DNA of 11,932 bases from contig CATJTQ010000124.1 of NCBI GenBank assembly GCA_949743325.1, positions 1 through 11,932 on the forward strand. Direction: 5' to 3'. Under the pieces are notes generated by a model. It was not told where the DNA came from, ran no database searches, and saw only the letters and a program-made list of their open reading frames with translations. Shown piece by piece: positions 4,564 to 11,932 of the stretch. The first letter of the stretch is position 1, and every line of letters begins with the position of its first letter. A program made the translations under genes and the position numbers. The DNA is from an uncultured Lachnospiraceae bacterium (GTDB taxonomy: Bacteria; Bacillota; Clostridia; Lachnospirales; Lachnospiraceae).

Positions 4564-4950
4564 TTACTCCAGATAATATAAGAAAACCCTGCAGACGCCA
4601 TCAGCGGCCGGATAGCATACTACAAGTCTTTCCGGAATTCCTTTATTCCTATATTTTGCCGGAAAATACTTAATCGTTCTTTGCAGGCCTGAAAAACTTA
4701 TATATATTTTCTGTTTTTCATCATATGCAATCCCCGTTACTTTTTCAATATAAACTGCATCTTCTTCCTTAACTACCTCATACTCTTCTGCGTCGCCTTC
4801 CGCATACATCTCCCATTGTTTTTCTATTGGACGATATCCATCAGCTTCCAAACCCGTTACAAGTTCACTTATTTTCTCCTCGTTAATATCTATTAACGCA
4901 GTATAAACGCCTGAATATTCTAAATGTTCTAATGTGTTTTTAGCACTCAC
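4564..4950 (-). CDS. hypothetical acidic protein (128 aa), no recognisable domain
   Basis: ORF with apparent GTG start at 4950 immediately after an in-frame stop. RBS-like AAGGA is 15 nt upstream (poor spacing). Coding status uncertain. Confidence 0.4.
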   Translation of the reverse strand: MSAKNTLEHLEYSGVYTALIDINEEKISELVTGLEADGYRPIEKQWEMYAEGDAEEYEVVKEEDAVYIEKVTGIAYDEKQKIYISFSGLQRTIKYFPAKYRNKGIPERLVVCYPAADGVCRVFLYYLE

Positions 4951-5367: not shown

Positions 5368-5382
5368 CTCTCTCATTAAAAA

Positions 5383-5469
5383 TGCCGCAGACCGGAATCG
5401 AACCGGTACGGGAGTATAAGTCCCGCAGGATTTTAAGTCCTGTGCGTCTGCCAGTTCCGCCACTGCGGC
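5383..5469 (-). tRNA. tRNA-Leu (anticodon TAA), 87 nt, long variable arm, CCA not encoded
   Basis: Reverse complement GCCGCAGTGGCGGAACTGGCAGACGCACAGGACTTAAAATCCTGCGGGACTTATACTCCCGTACCGGTTCGATTCCGGTCTGCGGCA folds as a cloverleaf. 7-bp acceptor stem, anticodon loop CTTAAAA, variable arm CGGGA..TCCCG, T-loop TTCGATT. Confidence 0.9.
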
Positions 5470-5487
5470 ATAAGTCTTTCGACCTAA

Positions 5488-5560
5488 TGGGACCTACAGG
5501 GCTCGAACCTGTGACCCTCTGCTTGTAAGGCAGATGCTCTCCCAGCTGAGCTAAGATCCC
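5488..5560 (-). tRNA. tRNA-Val (anticodon TAC), 73 nt, CCA not encoded
   Basis: Reverse complement GGGATCTTAGCTCAGCTGGGAGAGCATCTGCCTTACAAGCAGAGGGTCACAGGTTCGAGCCCTGTAGGTCCCA. Anticodon loop CTTACAA. Canonical D and T arms. Confidence 0.9.
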
Positions 5561-5581
5561 ACGACAACTATTCAGTTGTAA

Positions 5582-5655
5582 CGACCCGGATGGGGTTCGA
5601 ACCCACGACCTCCGCCGTGACAGGGCGGCGCTCTAACCAGCTGAGCCACCAGGCC
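5582..5655 (-). tRNA. tRNA-Asp (anticodon GTC), 74 nt, CCA not encoded
   Basis: Reverse complement GGCCTGGTGGCTCAGCTGGTTAGAGCGCCGCCCTGTCACGGCGGAGGTCGTGGGTTCGAACCCCATCCGGGTCG. Anticodon loop CTGTCAC. Acceptor stem pairs with two G-U wobbles. Confidence 0.88.
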
Positions 5656-5692
5656 AAAATATAGATATTAGATAATTTGATTTTTAAAACAA

Positions 5693-5766
5693 TGGACCTT
5701 CGGGGACTCGAACCCAGGACCGACCGGTTATGAGCCGGTTGCTCTAACCAACTGAGCTAAAGGTCC
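5693..5766 (-). tRNA. tRNA with CAT anticodon, 74 nt: elongator tRNA-Met or lysidine-type tRNA-Ile2 (not initiator)
   Basis: Reverse complement GGACCTTTAGCTCAGTTGGTTAGAGCAACCGGCTCATAACCGGTCGGTCCTGGGTTCGAGTCCCCGAAGGTCCA. Anticodon loop CTCATAA. No G29-G31/C39-C41 run and a paired 1:72, so not tRNA-fMet. Sequence resembles Firmicutes tRNA-Ile(CAU) as much as tRNA-Met. Confidence 0.85.
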
Positions 5767-5791
5767 AAATCTCTAAAAATTATTAGACAGA

Positions 5792-5864
5792 AGCCGATGA
5801 TCGGACTCGAACCGATAACCTGCTGATTACAAATCAGCTGCTCTGCCAATTGAGCCACATCGGC
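5792..5864 (-). tRNA. tRNA-Thr (anticodon TGT), 73 nt, CCA not encoded
   Basis: Reverse complement GCCGATGTGGCTCAATTGGCAGAGCAGCTGATTTGTAATCAGCAGGTTATCGGTTCGAGTCCGATCATCGGCT. Anticodon loop TTTGTAA. Confidence 0.9.
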
Positions 5865-5872
5865 AAACAATA

Positions 5873-5944
5873 TGACTCCAAGGGGATTTGAACCCCTGTT
5901 ACCGCCGTGAAAGGGCGGTGTCTTAACCGCTTGACCATGGAGCC
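5873..5944 (-). tRNA. tRNA-Glu (anticodon TTC), 72 nt, CCA not encoded
   Basis: Reverse complement GGCTCCATGGTCAAGCGGTTAAGACACCGCCCTTTCACGGCGGTAACAGGGGTTCAAATCCCCTTGGAGTCA. 3-bp D stem typical of tRNA-Glu. Anticodon loop CTTTCAC. Confidence 0.9.
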
Positions 5945-6089: not shown

Positions 6090-7184
6090 TCATCCAATCA
6101 TCTTGCTCAACTGTTCCATAATACCTATATTTCCATTAACAGAAATCTCTCCAACACGCTCACATATTCTCTCTAAATACTCAAGCTCTTTTAATTTATA
6201 TAAAGTTTTGTTCTCATCCATAAGCTTTGCGGTATTTAACAGTGAACGGGTAGACGCCACCTCTTCTCTTCTTGAAATAACGTTTGCCTGTGCAGTCTTC
6301 TCCGCAACCAACACAGAATTCATAATATTTTTTATCTCGCCAGGTAAAATAATATCTTTAATACCTGCCGTCAAAAAATTCACGCAAAACATTTCCTCCT
6401 TCTCCTTAATTAACTTATATATTTCTTTTGAAATCTGCTCCTTTAACTCCAATATTTCATCCAATTTATAATTGCTTGTAATTTCTCTTATTGACAACTG
6501 TACTGCTGAGTATAGCTGTCCCTTTAAATCATTTAATTTCTCGCCGAAATCTTTGGCGTCTCTAATCTTAAATATACAAACAACATTCATCCTAATACCG
6601 ATCTTATCTTTTGTTAAAATTTCCTGTCCTACAATATCAAGCTCTCTCTGTTTCATATCGACAACCTTATATGTAATGCTGTGATAGTAATTCCAAAATC
6701 TGTACAAACCTTTCGGCAGTTGTTCCTGCAATATATTATCATAATATAAAAGCCCCGTCTCTCCATCTCCGACAGATACTTCGGTATAATATTTACCAGG
6801 TACTAACGAGAGCATTTGTTTTGATACATCCGAACCAATAATTGTGTCAGCCATAGACACCACTTTTATTTCATAATTTTCAAAAACATTCCAAAAAATA
6901 TATTCCTTTCTGTTAGCAAATGAAGTTAACTTTCCATTTACATAAATGAAACCAACTGAACCATCTGGTATTTCCATATGTACTGTAGAGTCAAAAAACA
7001 CAGAATCTTTACAAAGAATCTGATAAGGTACATCTATGTAATCTACCTCTCCAGACATTTCCTCAATCTCAACCTTATATCCTGTCACTTTAGAAAAATG
7101 ATAAGTTCCAGCAGTAATCATTTTCTTAAAAATACCATTTTTTAATACAAAACCTGCCTGATTATCTTTAATAATATATTTCAT
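6090..7184 (-). CDS. SPFH/band-7 (stomatin/prohibitin/flotillin/HflKC) domain protein lacking a transmembrane segment
   Basis: 364 aa from the second ATG (7184). GGAGG lies 7 nt upstream of it but only 1 nt before the first ATG at 7190. The C-terminal half (LPKGLYRFW...ILTKDKIGIRMNVVCIFKIRDAKDF...LTAGIKDIILPGEIKNIMNSVLVAEKTAQANVISRREEVAS...) matches the SPFH core plus its following helical region. N-terminal residues 1-150 (QAGFVLKNGIFKKMITAGTYHF...VPYQILCKDSVFFDSTVHMEIPD) look like a second, partial SPFH-like repeat. No hydrophobic TM helix. Confidence 0.7.
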   Translation of the reverse strand: MKYIIKDNQAGFVLKNGIFKKMITAGTYHFSKVTGYKVEIEEMSGEVDYIDVPYQILCKDSVFFDSTVHMEIPDGSVGFIYVNGKLTSFANRKEYIFWNVFENYEIKVVSMADTIIGSDVSKQMLSLVPGKYYTEVSVGDGETGLLYYDNILQEQLPKGLYRFWNYYHSITYKVVDMKQRELDIVGQEILTKDKIGIRMNVVCIFKIRDAKDFGEKLNDLKGQLYSAVQLSIREITSNYKLDEILELKEQISKEIYKLIKEKEEMFCVNFLTAGIKDIILPGEIKNIMNSVLVAEKTAQANVISRREEVASTRSLLNTAKLMDENKTLYKLKELEYLERICERVGEISVNGNIGIMEQLSKMIG

Positions 7185-7550
7185 ATACATACCTCCTACA
7201 TAAAATCTCTTCTATATATTAATTATTTACTTAATAATAAAAAATACTTTTATCCCGCATTCATCAGTTAAATGCGGAAAGTTAGTTAAGCATATGGTCC
7301 AACAGAAGAACAATTATAATTTCCTCATTATGAACAATTATTTTGATTAGAAAATAATGTCTGATAATATAGTTTTTATAAATGTTGTTCAGTCTTTCTA
7401 TATACGGTATCCTTAAATTTCAAGCATATAACTGATTGACAATAGACTTGGATAAAATTTACGATATTACAAATTATATCAATGACCTTTTTTAAGCTTG
7501 ACTTGCAGTAAACCGAAAATAAAATGCACACTATGTCTGAACTTGGGATA

Positions 7551-7690
7551 AAAGCATTACATAGAGCGGATTCGAACCGCAGACTTGACATGTCTTACCA
7601 AAATTTTGTGTACTCTACCACTGAGCTACCGTTTTCACGGAAGGGAGTTGAACCCTTGACAACACAATCTTATAAAACTTAACCACTAAT
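7551..7690 (-). ncRNA. non-canonical tandem tRNA-like element (D-arm/T-arm modules without a foldable cloverleaf): possible Y-RNA-like/tRNA-mimic ncRNA or degenerate tRNA pseudogene
   Basis: The minus strand carries a series of tRNA-like modules. D-like arm CTTAA-TTAGTGG-TTAAG (7684..7668). T-arm AAGGG-TTCAACT-CCCTT (7647..7631). GNRA hairpin CCGT-GAAA-ACGG (7630..7619). Canonical D-arm TA-GCTC-AGTGGTA-GAGT (7618..7602). Palindromic CAAAATTTTG. Anticodon-like hairpin AGAC-ATGTCAA-GTCT (7585..7571). T-arm GCGG-TTCGAAT-CCGC (7570..7556). The flanks cannot form a 7-bp acceptor stem. There is no variable region between the anticodon-like stem and the T stem. Confidence 0.4.
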
Positions 7691-7795
7691 TAAGTTATGT
7701 GAAATATTATGATATACCTTACAGCACACTGCAGGCACCGCCGGGCAGAAAGTGACTTTCAATACCCGCGCATAATAAATTATTTCCATATTAAT

Positions 7796-9028
7796 TTAAC
7801 CCTTAACAACTCCGACCGTTTTCAATTTTCTTAACGGTGTGACTATATCTGACTGCTGAGCCATCACCAAATCAATATCTTTATATGCAAACCTGCACTC
7901 TTCAGCAACGTCATTTTTTTTGCGTTTACCAAGCACAACCCCTTGTTCCTTTAAATCTACCATAACCTCTTCAACAGAAAATGTCTTAACTGCTCCTGAG
8001 CGTGAATAATTTCTGCCTGCTCCATGTGAAGAAGAACAAAAAGATTCTCCATTGCCCTTTCCTTGTACAACATAACTGTATGAGCCCATTGCACCTGGTA
8101 TTACAGCAAGTTCGCCCTCTCGTACACGAGTAGCGCCTTTTCGATGTACCCAAACATTCTCATTATAATGACTTTCTAACGACGCATAGTTATGATGACA
8201 ATTGATCTCTTCACCAAATTCCACAATATAATCTGTATGCTTCTCTATTATCTCTTTAACAATACTGCAAGTTTTTTCCAACATGCGGGCACGATTCTCA
8301 AAAGCATATTCTAATGCTAAATTCATCCAATTGATATATTGCTGACCTTCTGTTGAATTAACAGAAAGAAATGCCAAGCGATACTCATCCTTTACCTCGC
8401 TGTACCATCTTTGATTTAAGACTCTTGCCTTCTCATGAAAATAATCGCATATCGCCTTTCCAAGATGACGGCTTCCTGAATGAAGCATTATACACAAAAA
8501 TCCATCCTGATCCTCCTGCAGCTCAATAAAGTGATTACCGCCTCCTAAACTTCCAACCTGATAATATCCATCATCAATTAATGGAAGTAATTCACTATCT
8601 ATTTCATACTTATCAAGTTCATATTTTGCTAAATCAAGCACTTTTGATTCCTGCGGCACTTTATATCTATCTGTATTTAACGGTATTGTTCTCATAATAT
8701 TACCAACTATCGCCTGAATCACAGAACCATTTCCCGTCTGAATCTCACGTATATCTTCCATGTGAACATTAGTTGGGATAAAATCCATACCACATCCAAT
8801 ATCAACTCCCACTGCATTGGGAATAATAACATCTTTTGCCGCGATAACACCGCCTATAGGCATACCCTTTCCCGCATGTGTATCAGGCATTAAACACACC
8901 CATTTATGGATAAACGGAAGCTGTGATAAGTGATAAGCCTGTTCAAGACAATTTTCCTCCAACTGACTTTCACTCTCCAACCATACTTTAACCGGAAATC
9001 TTGTTTTCTCATTATTTAATACAAACAT
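7796..9028 (-). CDS. rtcB: RNA-splicing ligase RtcB (3'-phosphate/2',3'-cyclic phosphate to 5'-OH RNA ligase)
   Basis: The ORF contains MPDTHAGKGMPIGGV, GVDIGCGM, GGGNHFIE, HRKGA, IPGAMGSYSYVV and SSSHGAGR, the conserved RtcB metal/GTP/His-GMP motifs. The start is taken as the internal ATG 9028..9026 (MFVLNNEKTRFPVKVWLE..., aligning with the E. coli RtcB N-terminus). It has an AGGGTGA RBS 7 nt upstream. The ORF-track start at 9106 would add 26 non-conserved hydrophobic residues. Confidence 0.9.
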   Translation of the reverse strand: MFVLNNEKTRFPVKVWLESESQLEENCLEQAYHLSQLPFIHKWVCLMPDTHAGKGMPIGGVIAAKDVIIPNAVGVDIGCGMDFIPTNVHMEDIREIQTGNGSVIQAIVGNIMRTIPLNTDRYKVPQESKVLDLAKYELDKYEIDSELLPLIDDGYYQVGSLGGGNHFIELQEDQDGFLCIMLHSGSRHLGKAICDYFHEKARVLNQRWYSEVKDEYRLAFLSVNSTEGQQYINWMNLALEYAFENRARMLEKTCSIVKEIIEKHTDYIVEFGEEINCHHNYASLESHYNENVWVHRKGATRVREGELAVIPGAMGSYSYVVQGKGNGESFCSSSHGAGRNYSRSGAVKTFSVEEVMVDLKEQGVVLGKRKKNDVAEECRFAYKDIDLVMAQQSDIVTPLRKLKTVGVVKG

Positions 9029-9142
9029 AGCGTTATCACCCTTTCTTATTTTTAAATTCTCTGTAGCTGATAAAAAGATTATATACAATAATTTCCAATA
9101 TATCATTTAAAAAAAGTTGCGAACTGTCTATCAATATAAATA

Positions 9143-9163
9143 TTAATTTAAGCTTTAAATTAA
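9143..9163. repeat. 21-bp interrupted palindrome TTAATTTAA-gct-TTAAATTAA (candidate operator)
   Basis: Perfect 9-bp inverted arms around a 3-nt centre. Lies immediately downstream of the predicted rtcB -10, i.e. over the predicted rtcB TSS, in the divergent rtcB/WYL intergenic region. Confidence 0.5.
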
Positions 9164-9168
9164 AAGTT

Positions 9169-9196
9169 GTTATATATTCAGTTAGTGCATTGTCAA
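9169..9196 (-). promoter_or_regulatory. candidate sigma-A promoter for rtcB
   Basis: Minus strand TTGACA (9196..9191) - 16 nt - TATAAC (9174..9169). Leader of about 130 nt to the rtcB ATG. No -24/-12 sigma-54 element seen. Confidence 0.3.
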
Positions 9197-9307
9197 AACC
9201 GCTCCCAAAGCGCCTTCAGCCGCTAAAACGGCTCTTTTACTCTGTTCCTTTGATAAGTCCACAATTTTATAAACAATTAATAAAAAATAACTTTTAGCAT
9301 ATTTTTC

Positions 9308-9336
9308 TTGCATCTGGTAACCAATTATTTTATGAT
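9308..9336 (+). promoter_or_regulatory. sigma-A type promoter for the WYL-regulator gene pair
   Basis: TTGCAT (9308-9313) - 17 nt - TATGAT (9331-9336). A short inverted repeat ATACT-gat-AGTAT (9335-9347) overlaps the -10/+1. About 70-nt leader to ATG 9413. Confidence 0.5.
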
Positions 9337-9412
9337 ACTGATAGTATTTACATAATTATAAGATTTAAAAAACTAATAATTAATAAACAACTTAGGAGAA
9401 ACCATCATACAC

Positions 9413-10660
9413 ATGTCTAATTTTCAAGAACTGATTAAAAATTTTTCTAAAACTAGAGATTATGTCAGAGATTTCTTTGTCTATGGATTCAAAACAAGAA
9501 ATGATTTTAATAACAAAAGCGCAAGAACTTACGACAATGAGCGCAGACGCCTTGAAAGCTGGTTAAGCCCATATATTCGAAGAGACTATACTTCTAATGG
9601 TGCAAACATCTCTCTTGCCATAGACAGTAATCTTCTTGATACAAACCCGCTTTTTCAAGTTTGGAAAACAAAATGCTTTACAGATAATGACATTGTACTG
9701 CATTTTCTAATAATAGATTTATTAAATAATAATAAGACACTAACTGCAGATGAAATAACAGACAATCTTTTAACAAAATATAATGCATTTTTTGATATAC
9801 AAACCGTTCGCCGAAAGTGCAATAAATATACGAATGATGGACTTCTTACTAAAGAGAAACTTGGAAAAAAAGTTTTATATTCTATAGATAACTCTCTTGC
9901 TTTATGGATTAAAACCAATGAAAATATACATAATGCACTTGCATTTTATCAGATGGCTGGAGATTTTGGAATTATTGCCAACGTATTATCAGAACAATTA
10001 GATATTGAAAACAATACCTTCCGTGTTAAGCACAATTTTTTTGTACATACGTTAGAAGATGAAATACTTATAGAACTCCTTAACTGTATTAATAAAAAGT
10101 TAAATGTACAGCTGCAAATTAAAAGCTCTAAAGCAGGTACACTAAACACATCAAATTGTACACCTCTGCAAATATTTACAAGCACACGGAGCGGTCGCCG
10201 TTTCCTTTGCGGCTATGTACACAAAAGCAGACGATTTACATGTTTCCGTCTTGATACAATTAAACAGGTCTTTCCTATGGAAAAATATAATGAATACGAT
10301 GAACTTTTAACTTTATTAAATAAAAACCGCAGCCATATCTGGGGAGTTTCTTTTCAAAGTGAAACAGGTAATCATCTTGAGAAATTAACAATGATTTTAC
10401 ATGTAAATGAACCATTCGAACACTTTATAATCGAGCGATTAAAACGAGAGGGCAGGGGAGGTATCATTTCTAAAACGGCACCAGACACATATAAATATGA
10501 AATTGAAGTGTTTGACTGCAATGAAATGCTTCCTTGGATTCGAACCTTTATAGGCAGGATTATATCGTTAGAATGTACATCAGAAATAGTCAAAAAAAGA
10601 TTTTATAACGATTTGAACACTATGTATAAAATGTATGGCATAAACACCAGGAGACAATAA
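9413..10660 (+). CDS. wHTH-WYL-WCX family transcriptional regulator with about 90-aa N-terminal extension (PafB/PafC-, BrxR/CapW-like)
   Basis: 415 aa. wHTH-like segment around residues 95-160 (...TLTADEITDNL...TVRRKCNKYTNDGLLTKEKLGKKVLYSI). WYL-like core (PLQIFTSTRSGRRFLCGYVHKSRRFTCFRLDTIKQV). C-terminal WCX-like segment (TYKYEIEVFDCNEMLPWIRTFIGRIISLE). RBS AGGAG is 14 nt upstream (long spacer). About 25-28% GC. Confidence 0.65.
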   Translation: MSNFQELIKNFSKTRDYVRDFFVYGFKTRNDFNNKSARTYDNERRRLESWLSPYIRRDYTSNGANISLAIDSNLLDTNPLFQVWKTKCFTDNDIVLHFLIIDLLNNNKTLTADEITDNLLTKYNAFFDIQTVRRKCNKYTNDGLLTKEKLGKKVLYSIDNSLALWIKTNENIHNALAFYQMAGDFGIIANVLSEQLDIENNTFRVKHNFFVHTLEDEILIELLNCINKKLNVQLQIKSSKAGTLNTSNCTPLQIFTSTRSGRRFLCGYVHKSRRFTCFRLDTIKQVFPMEKYNEYDELLTLLNKNRSHIWGVSFQSETGNHLEKLTMILHVNEPFEHFIIERLKREGRGGIISKTAPDTYKYEIEVFDCNEMLPWIRTFIGRIISLECTSEIVKKRFYNDLNTMYKMYGINTRRQ

Positions 10661-10662
10661 TT

Positions 10663-11649
10663 ATGGAAATATTTTCAGAAATATACAGCTGTTACTATAG
10701 AGTACTACGTCATTTATTATGCAGTCAAAATTCCATCAGCATTCAGCAAATATACGATCAAATCTATGATGAAGGATTTGAAGAAAGTCTATTGTCAATC
10801 ATTCCAAAACTAGAAAGCGGAACATGGAATTTATTTAATAAAAGTGGTGACCTATATATATCAAAAATTAACTCCGCATTTATAACTCCTCTGTCAAACC
10901 TTCAAAAATCCTATTTAAAGGCATTACTATCTGATGCACGGATTAGATTATTTCTAGGACAAGAACAATTGGAAACAATAAATAATATGCTCTCGTCAGT
11001 ATCTCCTCTTTGGAAACAGGAACAATTTTACTACTTCGATAAATTTACTGACGGAGACCCATTTGAAAATGAACACTACCAGCATTGCTTTCGAACTTTG
11101 CTTAATGCACAAAAAAATAATATATATGTAGATATTGAGTATAAATCACCAAAGGGAAGCCGCATTCATCACTACTATTACCCTGCGCGTCTCGAATATT
11201 CTGTAAAAAATGATAAATTTCGCATAATTGCAATGGAACAAATAAAGCATAACAAAACAAAATTGGAAATTTTAAATATTGATCGAATTCAAACAATAAA
11301 ACTTACAGATAAAATTTATACATTAACAAATGATTTAAATTCTGCAATCAAAAATTCTTATTATCAGGAACCAATTACGCTACAAATTATAAATAAACGC
11401 AATGCTTTGGAACGGGCAATGCTGCATTTTGCAAACTATGAAAAAAATACAACAAAAATAAATGAAAACACCTATGAGTGCCGCATATATTATAATAAAA
11501 ATATGGAAACTGAACTTCTAATTGAAGTAATGTCTTTTGGACCAATGCTTACAGTATTAGGAAACGACAGCTTCTTAAAAAGTTTAAAACAACGGCTAGA
11601 AAATCAATTGTCAATTTCAACCATACAAAATATTAATCCTAACATCTGA
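10663..11649 (+). CDS. wHTH-WYL-WCX family transcriptional regulator (paralogue of upstream gene)
   Basis: 328 aa. N-terminal wHTH-like segment (EIFSEIYSCYYRVLRHLLCSQNSISIQQIYDQI...). WYL-like core (YVDIEYKSPKGSRIHHYYYPARLEYSVKNDKFRIIAMEQIKHNKTKLEILNIDRIQTIKL). WCX-like C-terminus (TYECRIYYNKNMETELLIEVMSFGPMLTVLGNDSFLKSLKQRLE), clearly homologous to the end of the upstream protein. ATG is 2 nt after the upstream stop with AGGAG 10 nt upstream, so the pair is co-transcribed and coupled. Confidence 0.7.
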   Translation: MEIFSEIYSCYYRVLRHLLCSQNSISIQQIYDQIYDEGFEESLLSIIPKLESGTWNLFNKSGDLYISKINSAFITPLSNLQKSYLKALLSDARIRLFLGQEQLETINNMLSSVSPLWKQEQFYYFDKFTDGDPFENEHYQHCFRTLLNAQKNNIYVDIEYKSPKGSRIHHYYYPARLEYSVKNDKFRIIAMEQIKHNKTKLEILNIDRIQTIKLTDKIYTLTNDLNSAIKNSYYQEPITLQIINKRNALERAMLHFANYEKNTTKINENTYECRIYYNKNMETELLIEVMSFGPMLTVLGNDSFLKSLKQRLENQLSISTIQNINPNI

Positions 11650-11840: not shown

Positions 11841-11868
11841 AGTCCATAAACATAAACGTCTACGGACT
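11841..11868 (-). terminator. possible terminator downstream of tRNA-Asn
   Basis: Minus strand AGTCC (11868..11864) ... GGACT (11845..11841) with an 18-nt loop, followed by TTTTTTGTTG. Weak 5-bp stem. Confidence 0.3.
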
Positions 11869-11876
11869 AATCAAGC

Positions 11877-11932
11877 TCCCCGAGTAGGGCTCGAACCTAC
11901 AACCCCACGGTTAACAGCCGTGTGCTCTACCA
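11877..11932 (-). tRNA. tRNA-Asn (anticodon GTT), 3' portion only (5' part beyond right edge), CCA not encoded
   Basis: Reverse complement ...TGGTAGAGCACACGGCTGTTAACCGTGGGGTTGTAGGTTCGAGCCCTACTCGGGGAG. Anticodon loop CTGTTAA. T-arm GTAGG-TTCGAGC-CCTAC. Acceptor 3' strand plus discriminator G ends at 11877. Confidence 0.85.

Follow-up and report, generated by a model that had tools for sequence, protein, structure and literature searches.

In this study we analyse a window of 11,932 nucleotides from an uncultured Lachnospiraceae bacterium (contig CATJTQ010000124.1 of assembly GCA_949743325.1), in which the gene for the RNA ligase RtcB stands divergent from two tandem genes for regulators with WYL domains, here called WYL-A and WYL-B, and is followed on its own strand by a tRNA-like RNA and by the gene for a protein of the Band-7/SPFH family. 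Gene identities, protein folds, conserved linkage, a conserved DNA motif and RNA structure were computed, and we conclude with moderate confidence that the region as a whole, including activation of the repair genes by the WYL pair, is best explained as a single functional cassette that comprises four genes and an RNA, the regulator genes being divergent from the others. An earlier note on this DNA, prepared from its letters alone, had placed rtcB, a tRNA-like RNA and the divergent WYL genes where we find them as well, and had overlooked the Band-7 gene, so that its range (7551-11649) takes in most of the cassette and not the whole.

Conserved association of the regulator pair with RNA repair

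A scan of one genome per species recovered 312 genomes with a relative of WYL-A, the best 80 of which were analysed as close loci; these are nearly all labelled as Lachnospiraceae or relatives and show 61-70% identity. Among the carriers of the cassette are the mouse isolates Petralouisia muris and Sporofaciens musculi (L026, L046). The taxon-named loci in the genome set are all from Bacillota, with the exception of two metagenome bins labelled Bacteroides. Clustering of the open reading frames (ORFs) of 81 loci placed WYL-A in 81, WYL-B in 77, RtcB in 73 and Band-7 in 51; no other real neighbour exceeded 15 loci, and none of the other genes of the window recurred. As only four gene families recur, the cassette is self-contained. 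When the count is restricted to loci with full flanks, that is at least 3 kb on both sides (52 close and 31 distant loci), rtcB lies beside the pair in 51 of the 52 species genomes, band7, downstream of rtcB and on the same strand, is present in 40, and an RNA-repair marker is found in all 52.

The family can be traced further afield. An exhaustive search of cluster representatives with WYL-A shows a large family: 313 clusters, formed at 50% identity, lie below an E-value of 1e-30, and matches over the full length extend to as little as 30% identity. A metagenome scan seeded with distant members supplied 80 further loci, 30-68% identical to the window protein. An RNA-repair marker is present in 29 of the 31 distant loci with full flanks. 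The earlier note had left it to a neighbourhood survey to establish whether rtcB accompanies homologues of the WYL genes; both sets of loci bear this out, the close ones for rtcB and the distant ones for RNA-repair markers in general. Distant homologues of the pair, at 30-45% identity, occur beside four other cassettes: 1) Hen1-Pnkp-RlaP, the classic bacterial Pnkp/Hen1 repair system, from which the pair is divergent on the annotated Enterococcus raffinosus megaplasmid pCX012922 (L164). 2) KptA-Thg1-ligase-RlaP, in which the order is RlaP, WYL pair, KptA/Tpt1, Thg1-like protein and a kinase-phosphatase-Rnl1 ligase. 3) RtcB-RlaP. 4) A DUF2828 protein with a tRNA-like RNA. Some distant loci contain the RNA and Band-7 without RtcB; in others WYL-A, WYL-B, Band-7 and RtcB are co-directional, and the RtcB is 28-30% identical to that of the window. 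The repair enzymes are thus exchanged while the regulator family beside them stays, and nothing speaks more strongly for a pair dedicated to RNA repair.

Individual loci add detail to this picture. RlaP-KptA-Thg1-like-Rnl1 ligase or RtcB-RlaP cassettes accompany the pair homologues in L146/L124/L126 and L117. A protein of 504 residues with DUF2828 and DUF7788 replaces RtcB/Band-7 beside the pair in L096 (6117-7631) and L154 (5967-7481), both of which carry the 21-nt motif described below and the tRNA-like RNA, and likewise in L080, L095, L123, L128, L148 and L156. This protein found no sequence match in the PDB and none in NCBIfam; the family may be TROVE/vWA (Ro60)-like, which sequence tests neither supported nor refuted.

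It might be argued that the adjacency reflects inherited synteny or co-mobility with no regulatory link, the pair controlling itself or distant genes and the conserved motif being just a constrained promoter or upstream-promoter (UP) element. The 80 closest loci do all come from one family, the Lachnospiraceae, and some lineages have the pair without repair genes. Yet the flanking genes are unconserved while the four cassette genes are conserved, and the association persists across both Clostridia and Bacilli where the gene order has changed, where another RtcB subtype stands in and where the repair enzymes are replaced altogether. Furthermore, the chance of meeting the single-copy rtcB in a 20-kb window should by our estimate be well under 1%. 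We therefore regard an association of this passive kind as very unlikely, and return to a cassette with its dedicated regulators. A phage or plasmid origin was also considered and rejected: the search gave no phage match and just 5 megaplasmid/chromid matches, at 31-36% identity.

Anatomy of the rtcB operon

The full ORF of rtcB (7796-9106, minus strand) matches the Pfam RtcB profile (PF01139) with an E-value of 2.2e-107 and 360 bits, against a cut-off of 27, over profile positions 1-426, which marks the product as a full-length RtcB, an RNA 3'-phosphate/5'-OH ligase, and agrees with its earlier identification as an RNA repair ligase. Because tblastn alignments of orthologues in ~70 loci begin at M27 (position 9028) and span residues 1-410, M27 is taken as the start codon. 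The divergent intergenic region is therefore 9029-9412, or 384 bp, in keeping with the length given in the earlier note. The Band-7 protein matches PF01145 (E 1.8e-22; 80.7 bits, cut-off 23.6) and is cytoplasmic.

Since the Band-7 gene completes the operon (Table 1), the cassette is the system of RtcB, Band-7 and tRNA-like RNA predicted by Burroughs and Aravind in 2016. As related in passages of a later paper, that prediction holds that some bacteria encode RtcB beside a Band-7 protein and a 'band-7-associated tRNA', in short b7a-tRNA, and the same passages mention that YrlA occasionally adjoins Band-7 (bioRxiv 10.1101/312249).

Table 1. Coordinates of the cassette features in the window
Feature	Position	Strand	Description and basis
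Band-7/SPFH gene (band7)	6090-7190	-	366 residues; last gene of the rtcB operon; Pfam Band_7
RNA 3' domain	7243-7558	-	RNAalifold, covariation
RNA tRNA-like core	7562-7670	-	sub-threshold Rfam YrlA/tRNA, covariance model R1, covariation
RNA 5' domain	7678-7787	-	alignment A3, covariation
rtcB	7796-9028	-	410 residues from M27; open frame to 9106; Pfam RtcB
Predicted sigma-A type rtcB promoter	9078-9106	-	promoter scan, consensus match
Conserved asymmetric 21-nt motif, ATCATTTAAAAAAAGTTGCGA	9102-9122	+	candidate operator of the WYL pair
Palindrome, 9+3+9	9143-9163		operator proposed in the earlier note; non-conserved
WYL-A	9413-10660	+	415 residues; ~95-residue N-terminal extension, winged helix-turn-helix, WYL, WCX-like
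WYL-B	10663-11649	+	328 residues; winged helix-turn-helix, WYL, WCX-like

Fold and pairing of the WYL proteins

Sequence profiles recognise the two regulators to differing degrees. Pfam PF13280 scores WYL-A at 17.2 bits (E 0.005), below its cut-off of 21.8, and does not match WYL-B, and NCBIfam recognised neither protein; the PADLOC WYL profile PDLC01652 matches both, at 3.6e-10 for WYL-A and 3.7e-8 for WYL-B. Thus the WYL assignment made from the letters is upheld for both proteins by PADLOC, and not by Pfam, where WYL-A stays under the cut-off and WYL-B goes unmatched. Models were built with AlphaFold2 (AF2) from shallow family alignments, and reached a predicted local distance difference test score (pLDDT) of 61 for WYL-A and 68 for WYL-B. 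Their Foldseek matches at E <= 0.001, 30-32 per model, are solely to full-length regulators composed of a winged helix-turn-helix (wHTH), a WYL and a WCX domain, namely PafBC in complex with RNA polymerase (9fnd), DriD, CapW, BrxR and WYL1, in alignments that cover ~290-360 columns per model at template modelling (TM) scores of 0.2-0.4. The best match of WYL-A is the PafBC chain 9fnd_X (1.1e-9), followed by DriD, CapW and BrxR; that of WYL-B is 9fnd_Y (2.2e-10), with DriD at 2.6e-10. According to these models, both proteins have the three-domain fold of wHTH, Sm-like WYL beta-barrel and WCX. The genes had been called paralogous, and as far as the fold is concerned this is supported; in sequence it is not, as hhalign of the WYL-A family against the WYL-B family gave a probability of 0.3, that is, no detectable resemblance. 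Kinship in sequence was accordingly set aside, being undetectable by profiles or hhalign for the two proteins with each other or with solved WYL regulators.

The N-terminal extension of WYL-A, residues 1-95 (9413-9700), is the most conserved part of the protein across its family (YVRDFFVYGFK..R..F..KS.RTYDNERRRLESWL ... FTDNDI.LHF), and WYL-B does not have it. AF2 modelled the extension at a pLDDT below 50 and the profile libraries gave no match; possibly it represents a further winged helix, in degenerate form.

The coordinates of the two WYL genes in the earlier note were exact, and the genes are tightly spaced: WYL-A ends with a stop codon at 10658-10660, WYL-B begins with an ATG at 10663, and its ribosome-binding site, AGGAGA, lies inside WYL-A. 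Of the 81 close loci, 77 have the tandem of WYL-A then WYL-B, and so have nearly all of the 80 distant loci, where the genes often overlap or abut; the few loci without WYL-B are cut by contig ends. Furthermore, ~9 of the 150 best cluster representatives are A-B fusions of 728-855 residues, the N-terminal half of which aligns to the whole of WYL-A and the C-terminal half to the whole of WYL-B, at 35-37% identity and with E-values between 1e-58 and 6e-67. For at least four lineages a gene-calling artefact is ruled out, as four fusion clusters each contain a number of distinct members, all equally long and drawn from independent assemblies, and one fusion is a single ORF in 3 samples; the singletons P0247, P0253 and P0292 could be artefacts. 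PafB and PafC are separate proteins in mycobacteria, and the Arthrobacter PafBC chains among the Foldseek matches (6sj9), with ~640 residues, fit a fusion. Natural A-B fusions and the analogy to PafBC thus support, short of proof, a complex of WYL-A with WYL-B, which may work as a heteromer in the manner of PafB/PafC. The two-gene wHTH-WYL-WCX architecture of PafBC type, which the earlier note had recognised, is backed by the same fusions together with the fold matches.

Fusions of 728-799 residues occur in several lineages, those of 766-799 residues being represented by P0302/P0391, P0283, P0334, P0362 and L161-L163. The fusion whose locus was inspected lies beside small ORFs of 221, 83, 64 and 30 residues, and no RNA-repair gene or tRNA-like RNA was found near it.

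The divergent promoter region

A promoter scan predicts for rtcB a -35 element ATGATA (9106-9101), a 17-nt spacer containing a conserved TGGAAAT and a -10 element TATAAT (9083-9078), and consensus matching puts the transcription start near 9071. The -10 element is perfect and the -35 element poor, and the -10 element and the spacer are conserved in 52 related intergenic regions. These regions have in common the block ATTATA-N18-ATCATTTcAAAAAAGtTGCGA (9078-9124 in the window), the core of which is an asymmetric 21-nt motif that matches the window once, against an expectation of 0. Exactly one copy of the motif is present in 75 of the 80 close loci; it also occurs in 41 of the 80 distant ones, and is kept even where the regulators are only ~40% identical. 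In ~10 loci with insertions between rtcB and the WYL genes it remains by rtcB, L080 being the exception, and in loci that lack rtcB it lies directly upstream of the RNA. Counted from the predicted rtcB start, the motif extends from about -31 to -51 and overlaps the rtcB -35 element; it is from positions of this kind that activators like PafBC and DriD make contact with RNA polymerase. Judged by its position and conservation, the motif is a candidate operator of the WYL pair, and its lack of palindromic symmetry fits a heteromeric binder. As its TTGCGA reads in many loci as the -35 element of the divergent, rightward WYL promoter, autoregulation is plausible.

Three side features of the region in the window were noted. 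The intergenic region is longer than in most relatives, with 290 nt between the motif and the WYL-A start as against typically 55-165; a small terminator-like hairpin lies at 9218-9233 (plus strand); and a second possible WYL-A promoter, TTGCAT-N17-TATGAT, at ~9308-9336 (plus strand). Neither the hairpin nor this second promoter is conserved elsewhere.

The earlier note had proposed a different operator, a 21-bp palindrome over the rtcB start site. The palindrome exists, with arms of 9 bp and a loop of 3 (TTAATTTAA GCT TTAAATTAA). It is absent from all 52 related intergenic regions, however, and 5% of dinucleotide shuffles of the intergenic region hold a palindrome as good. Its position had also been misjudged, the predicted start of rtcB transcription being ~70-90 bp further downstream. 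Being non-conserved, marginal against chance and misplaced relative to the promoter, it was rejected as an operator, and it is probably a chance feature of AT-rich DNA.

Control by sigma-54 and RtcR was likewise rejected. Profile scans of the larger ORFs of the window found no match to RtcR or RtcA, the rtcB promoter is of the -35/-10 type, and inspection by eye found no sigma-54 sequence (TGGCAC-N5-TTGC) at it.

The direction of regulation needs to be weighed with these observations at hand. As a repressor like BrxR or CapW, the WYL pair would silence both promoters from the shared -35 region and leave upon binding its ligand. WYL transcription factors are treated as negative regulators in other systems (PMC9503650). 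Moreover, BrxR and CapW are also strong fold matches, and the motif overlaps both putative -35 elements, where a bound protein could block RNA polymerase. On the other hand, a poor -35 (ATGATA) beside a perfect, invariant -10 is typical of activator-dependent promoters, for which reason we class the rtcB promoter as probably activator-dependent. The best fold matches and closest structural relatives, PafBC and DriD, are described in their PDB entries as transcription activators, and the site is asymmetric, unlike the operators of BrxR and CapW, which are inverted repeats. Repression appears to us somewhat unlikely, and activation by the pair is the direction we favour.

A structured spacer RNA with a tRNA-like core

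Comparison with related loci reveals that the rtcB-band7 spacer (7243-7787, ~550 nt) is structured almost throughout, with strong covariation. A tRNA-like RNA 3' of rtcB, as reported in the earlier note, is indeed present; it is far larger than ~80 nt, and ~85% of it had been missed. Alignment A3, which includes 34 loci and spans the 5' domain and the core (7562-7787), supports 62 pairs in 11 helices, with 98.5% of the cells paired as against 39-46% in slid controls, and compensatory changes at 22 pairs as against 7.1 +/- 1.5 in shuffles. For the 3' domain, RNAalifold on 21 loci gave 43 pairs, 92% of them canonical, with compensatory change at 30 pairs, where shuffles averaged 16 and did not exceed 22.

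The 5' domain consists of a helix P1 (GAAAUA/UAUUUC) that encloses two hairpins, followed by a hairpin CUUAA..UUAAG. The core has a UUGUG/CACAA helix around T-arm 1, a short hairpin and a D-arm, in the permuted tRNA layout of YrlA, and continues with a further hairpin and then T-arm 2 (GCGGUUCGAAUCCGC). The 3' domain, ~315 nt in size, is closed by a ~13-bp helix in which AAUGCUUUUAUCCC pairs with GGGAUAAAAGUAUU, and contains nested helices together with a long hairpin whose length varies. A covariance model built here from the core, termed R1, scores the core of the window at 121.9 bits and finds it in 55 of the 81 close loci and 35 of the 80 distant ones, in every case on the strand of rtcB, and between rtcB and band7 wherever both occur. 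The RNA is present in all 54 Band-7-positive close loci, and R1 gave no strong match in ~16 Band-7-negative close loci in which the region downstream of rtcB is intact. In genomic setting, as a tRNA-like RNA between or beside RtcB and the Band-7 gene, it thus corresponds to the b7a-tRNA. In one species (L012, ~8200-8360, minus strand), the tRNA-like module downstream of rtcB is duplicated and has three T-arm motifs.

Several known classes were tried for this RNA. The Rfam tRNA model aligns at 7557-7635 with 22.6 bits, short of its gathering threshold of 29, and with a broken acceptor stem; neither ARAGORN nor Rfam at gathering thresholds makes a call in the tRNA-like spacer region of the window, and a genuine tRNA was thus rejected. 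Homologous elements are called as tRNA in L040 (by ARAGORN) and in L154 (by Rfam, at 31 bits). Rfam YrlA (RF02553) aligns at 7589-7678 with 38.2 bits, the gathering score being 69. The likeness to YrlA and Y RNAs proposed from the letters finds support in this sub-threshold alignment, which shares the module layout: the YrlA-type module of T-arm, short hairpin and D-arm enclosed by a helix is present, and covariation backs helices 6-9. The ends of the Rfam YrlA model that form a helix are mostly deleted in the alignment to the window RNA. Membership of YrlA was rejected on the score and on the lack of a Ro60 gene, as the proteins scanned from window ORFs of at least 100 residues included no match to Ro60/Rsr (TROVE). 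No Rfam family reached its threshold for the spacer RNA in the window and seven related loci; known large RNAs (ROOL, GOLLD, raiA, OLE), riboswitches and ribozymes gave no Rfam match in the spacer even at E<=10, and a CUGAUGA...GAAA string in it received no hammerhead score.

As far as its sequence goes, the ~550-nt spacer may be one stable RNA, or a tRNA-like RNA joined to a leader of band7. In the latter case the 3' domain would be a cis-acting element, such as a riboswitch or an attenuator that binds a protein, governing translation or transcription of band7, and only the tRNA-like core would be a free RNA. The closing helix ends ~45 nt before the band7 start codon, and the domain is present only where band7 is present, both of which agree with a leader. 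No terminator/anti-terminator pair or sequestering of the ribosome-binding site is evident in it, though, and no Rfam riboswitch matches; it begins 4 nt beyond T-arm 2, which suggests one continuous fold. We place the leader on the unlikely side, and give some preference to a single RNA.

Proposed mechanism and points that weigh against it

The cassette might operate as follows. RNA damage, likeliest that caused by ribotoxins, would yield fragments, and these would bind the WYL domain or domains of a WYL-A/B heteromer sitting at the 21-nt site. The heteromer would then recruit or reposition sigma-A RNA polymerase at the activator-dependent rtcB promoter, and the resulting transcript, from which the co-transcribed RNA would presumably be processed, would yield RtcB, the structured RNA and Band-7. 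Following the prediction of Burroughs and Aravind, the RNA and Band-7 would serve as scaffold or cofactor for ligation by RtcB. The WYL pair would in this way be an analogue in role of the CARF activator RtcR, with its site also at the -35 element of its own promoter.

Certain observations weigh against this proposal. On the side of the proteins, the AF2 models are of moderate or low confidence, and the low TM-scores mean that the arrangement of the domains is not readable from the fold matches; the family-profile sequence search found no solved relative of WYL-A or WYL-B, and none to PafBC at E<1 in the PDB; and the 2-nt gap between the two genes is not kept in the closest relatives, where tblastn puts it at ~10-150 nt. 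On the side of the DNA, the motif could be merely a very constrained promoter and not an operator. On the side of linkage, no repair gene lies within 8 kb of the pair in L093 and L097, and none is recognisable near it in the fused lineage L161-L163 and in Treponema saccharophilum. Moreover, DNA binding by the pair, its ligand and the direction of its regulation are what we infer, and the solved relatives with a bound ligand in the fold search, DriD and CapW, carry single-stranded DNA (ssDNA) and not RNA.

The last point leads to a further alternative, in which the WYL pair would sense ssDNA arising from DNA damage or phage replication, and induction of RtcB would be an arm of a DNA-damage or phage response. 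The top fold matches in question are DriD (8tp8, 7tzv) and CapW (9c5g). Likewise, passages of one report describe expression of the Salmonella rtc operon in the SOS response (PMC9879122). Nevertheless, the pair is tied to RNA-repair cassettes of five compositions and not to DNA-repair genes. Furthermore, a relative that binds single-stranded RNA exists in WYL1 of the Cas13d system, which we take the fold match 6oaw to represent. Sensing of ssDNA is in our estimate distinctly unlikely, and RNA fragments remain the ligand that we prefer.

Setting of the cassette in the window

The DNA of the window is low in GC (26-48%), chromosomal and Lachnospiraceae-like. Read from the left, it begins with three cobalamin genes (cbiF, cobC, cbiD) and a gene for O-acetylhomoserine sulfhydrylase; then come a small ORF, a group of six tRNA genes and the cassette, with a further, partial tRNA at the right edge. 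The small ORF, which occupies 4564-4950 on the minus strand and encodes 128 residues from a GTG start, separates the sulfhydrylase gene from the tRNA array; NCBIfam offers no match to it, none of the related loci has a counterpart, and it may not be a real gene. Directly downstream of the right-edge partial tRNA is a strong terminator-like hairpin (11841-11868, minus strand; 12 pairs and a T-run), which faces the 3' end of WYL-B and is probably the terminator of the right-edge tRNA operon.

The cassette is thus located within an array of tRNA genes in the window (5382-5944, 11876-11932), as it is in at least 7 other species (L003, L006, L008, L031, L036, L051, L069). A tRNA-Glu gene, often with one for tRNA-Cys, lies 3' of band7, or 3' of rtcB if band7 is absent, and L006, L008 and L031 also have a tRNA-Asn gene 3' of WYL-B; most cassette loci have no tRNA genes nearby. 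The setting may reflect an insertion hot spot or a functional tie to tRNA.

Implications

To our knowledge, RtcR is the sole characterised RNA-damage sensor, and we know of no account of how damage is sensed and repair induced outside enterobacteria. The present locus makes induction of RNA repair outside this group testable, as it supplies, in Lachnospiraceae that are common in the gut, a pair of regulator genes together with a candidate operator of 21 nt and a defined target operon. Since five unrelated repair cassettes are accompanied by this regulator family, one study of ligand and operator could explain the control of many systems. Likewise, the partnership of Band-7 with a tRNA-like RNA, proposed but never validated, can now be tested with an RNA that is defined by covariation, and the RNA, at ~550 nt, would rank among the few large structured RNAs of bacteria. 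Were the pair to respond to RNA fragments, WYL regulators would have a wider range of ligands, the ligand-bound fold matches carrying ssDNA.

In its most far-reaching form, which we offer tentatively and think possible rather than probable, the proposal is that the WYL-A/WYL-B family is a general RNA-damage sensor of Bacillota, the counterpart of RtcR, that switches on whichever repair cassette it accompanies, and that the ~550-nt spacer represents a new class of large RNA in an SPFH repair ribonucleoprotein.

Comparison with known systems

A role for WYL factors in RNA repair has been raised before. One paper states that RNA ends with a cyclic phosphate may be sensed by transcription factors of the CARF and WYL kinds and that RNA repair pathways are regulated by some of these, citing Burroughs and Aravind (2016) for the WYL factors (PMC9503650). 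The statement in the earlier note that a WYL sensor beside rtcB was 'not described as such' was consequently overstated, the module having been predicted in 2016. A literature search whose scope lay outside the text of Burroughs and Aravind (2016) found no account of a two-gene, PafBC-like WYL family tied to five types of RNA-repair cassette, and no description of the N-terminal extension of WYL-A, the 21-nt motif or the ~550-nt RNA. The type of cassette is thus already predicted; for the regulator of two genes, for its putative DNA site and for how large the RNA is, no earlier description seems to exist. To the extent that the citing paper describes it, the b7a-tRNA system has the same RtcB beside Band-7, with a tRNA-like RNA between them; in the window the tRNA-like part is ~110 nt of a ~550-nt RNA, and the WYL pair and the 21-nt motif are added.

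Among the systems under RtcR, a sigma-54 activator of the CARF-AAA+ type whose signal is tRNA halves that end in a cyclic phosphate, the Salmonella rsr-yrlBA-rtcBA locus (PMC7790460) resembles the cassette in its RNA ligase operon, its tRNA-mimicking RNAs and a regulator with a proposed nucleic-acid-sensing domain; the window cassette differs in having a Band-7 scaffold instead of Ro60 and a proposed two-protein WYL factor at a predicted sigma-A type promoter. In Pseudomonas aeruginosa, the RtcR-controlled rtc locus contains an SPFH gene, PaFlo8, and so shares with the window an SPFH gene inside an RtcB locus with a dedicated regulator; there the regulator is RtcR and RtcA is present, and the report mentions no WYL genes and no tRNA-like RNA (PMC13086221).

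Among WYL regulators, DriD, CapW, BrxR and WYL1 share the three-domain fold and a place beside the system that they control, which is an SOS-independent damage response for DriD, the cyclic-oligonucleotide-based antiphage signalling system (CBASS) for CapW, the bacteriophage exclusion system (BREX) for BrxR and Cas13d for WYL1. Unlike the window pair, these are single-gene homodimers with symmetric operators. PafBC, a DNA-damage activator of actinobacteria and the best Foldseek match of both proteins, resembles the pair in its adjacent wHTH-WYL-WCX genes, natural fusions and an asymmetric site near the -35 element, for which the 21-nt motif is the candidate in the window. Orthology to PafB/PafC and a location at the actinobacterial pup-proteasome locus were not found, as there is no PDB sequence match at E<1 and the neighbours are RNA-repair genes; the window pair belongs to Bacillota, has no detectable sequence similarity to PafBC and lies outside the proteasome locus, and its WYL-A bears an extra, conserved N-terminal domain of 95 residues.

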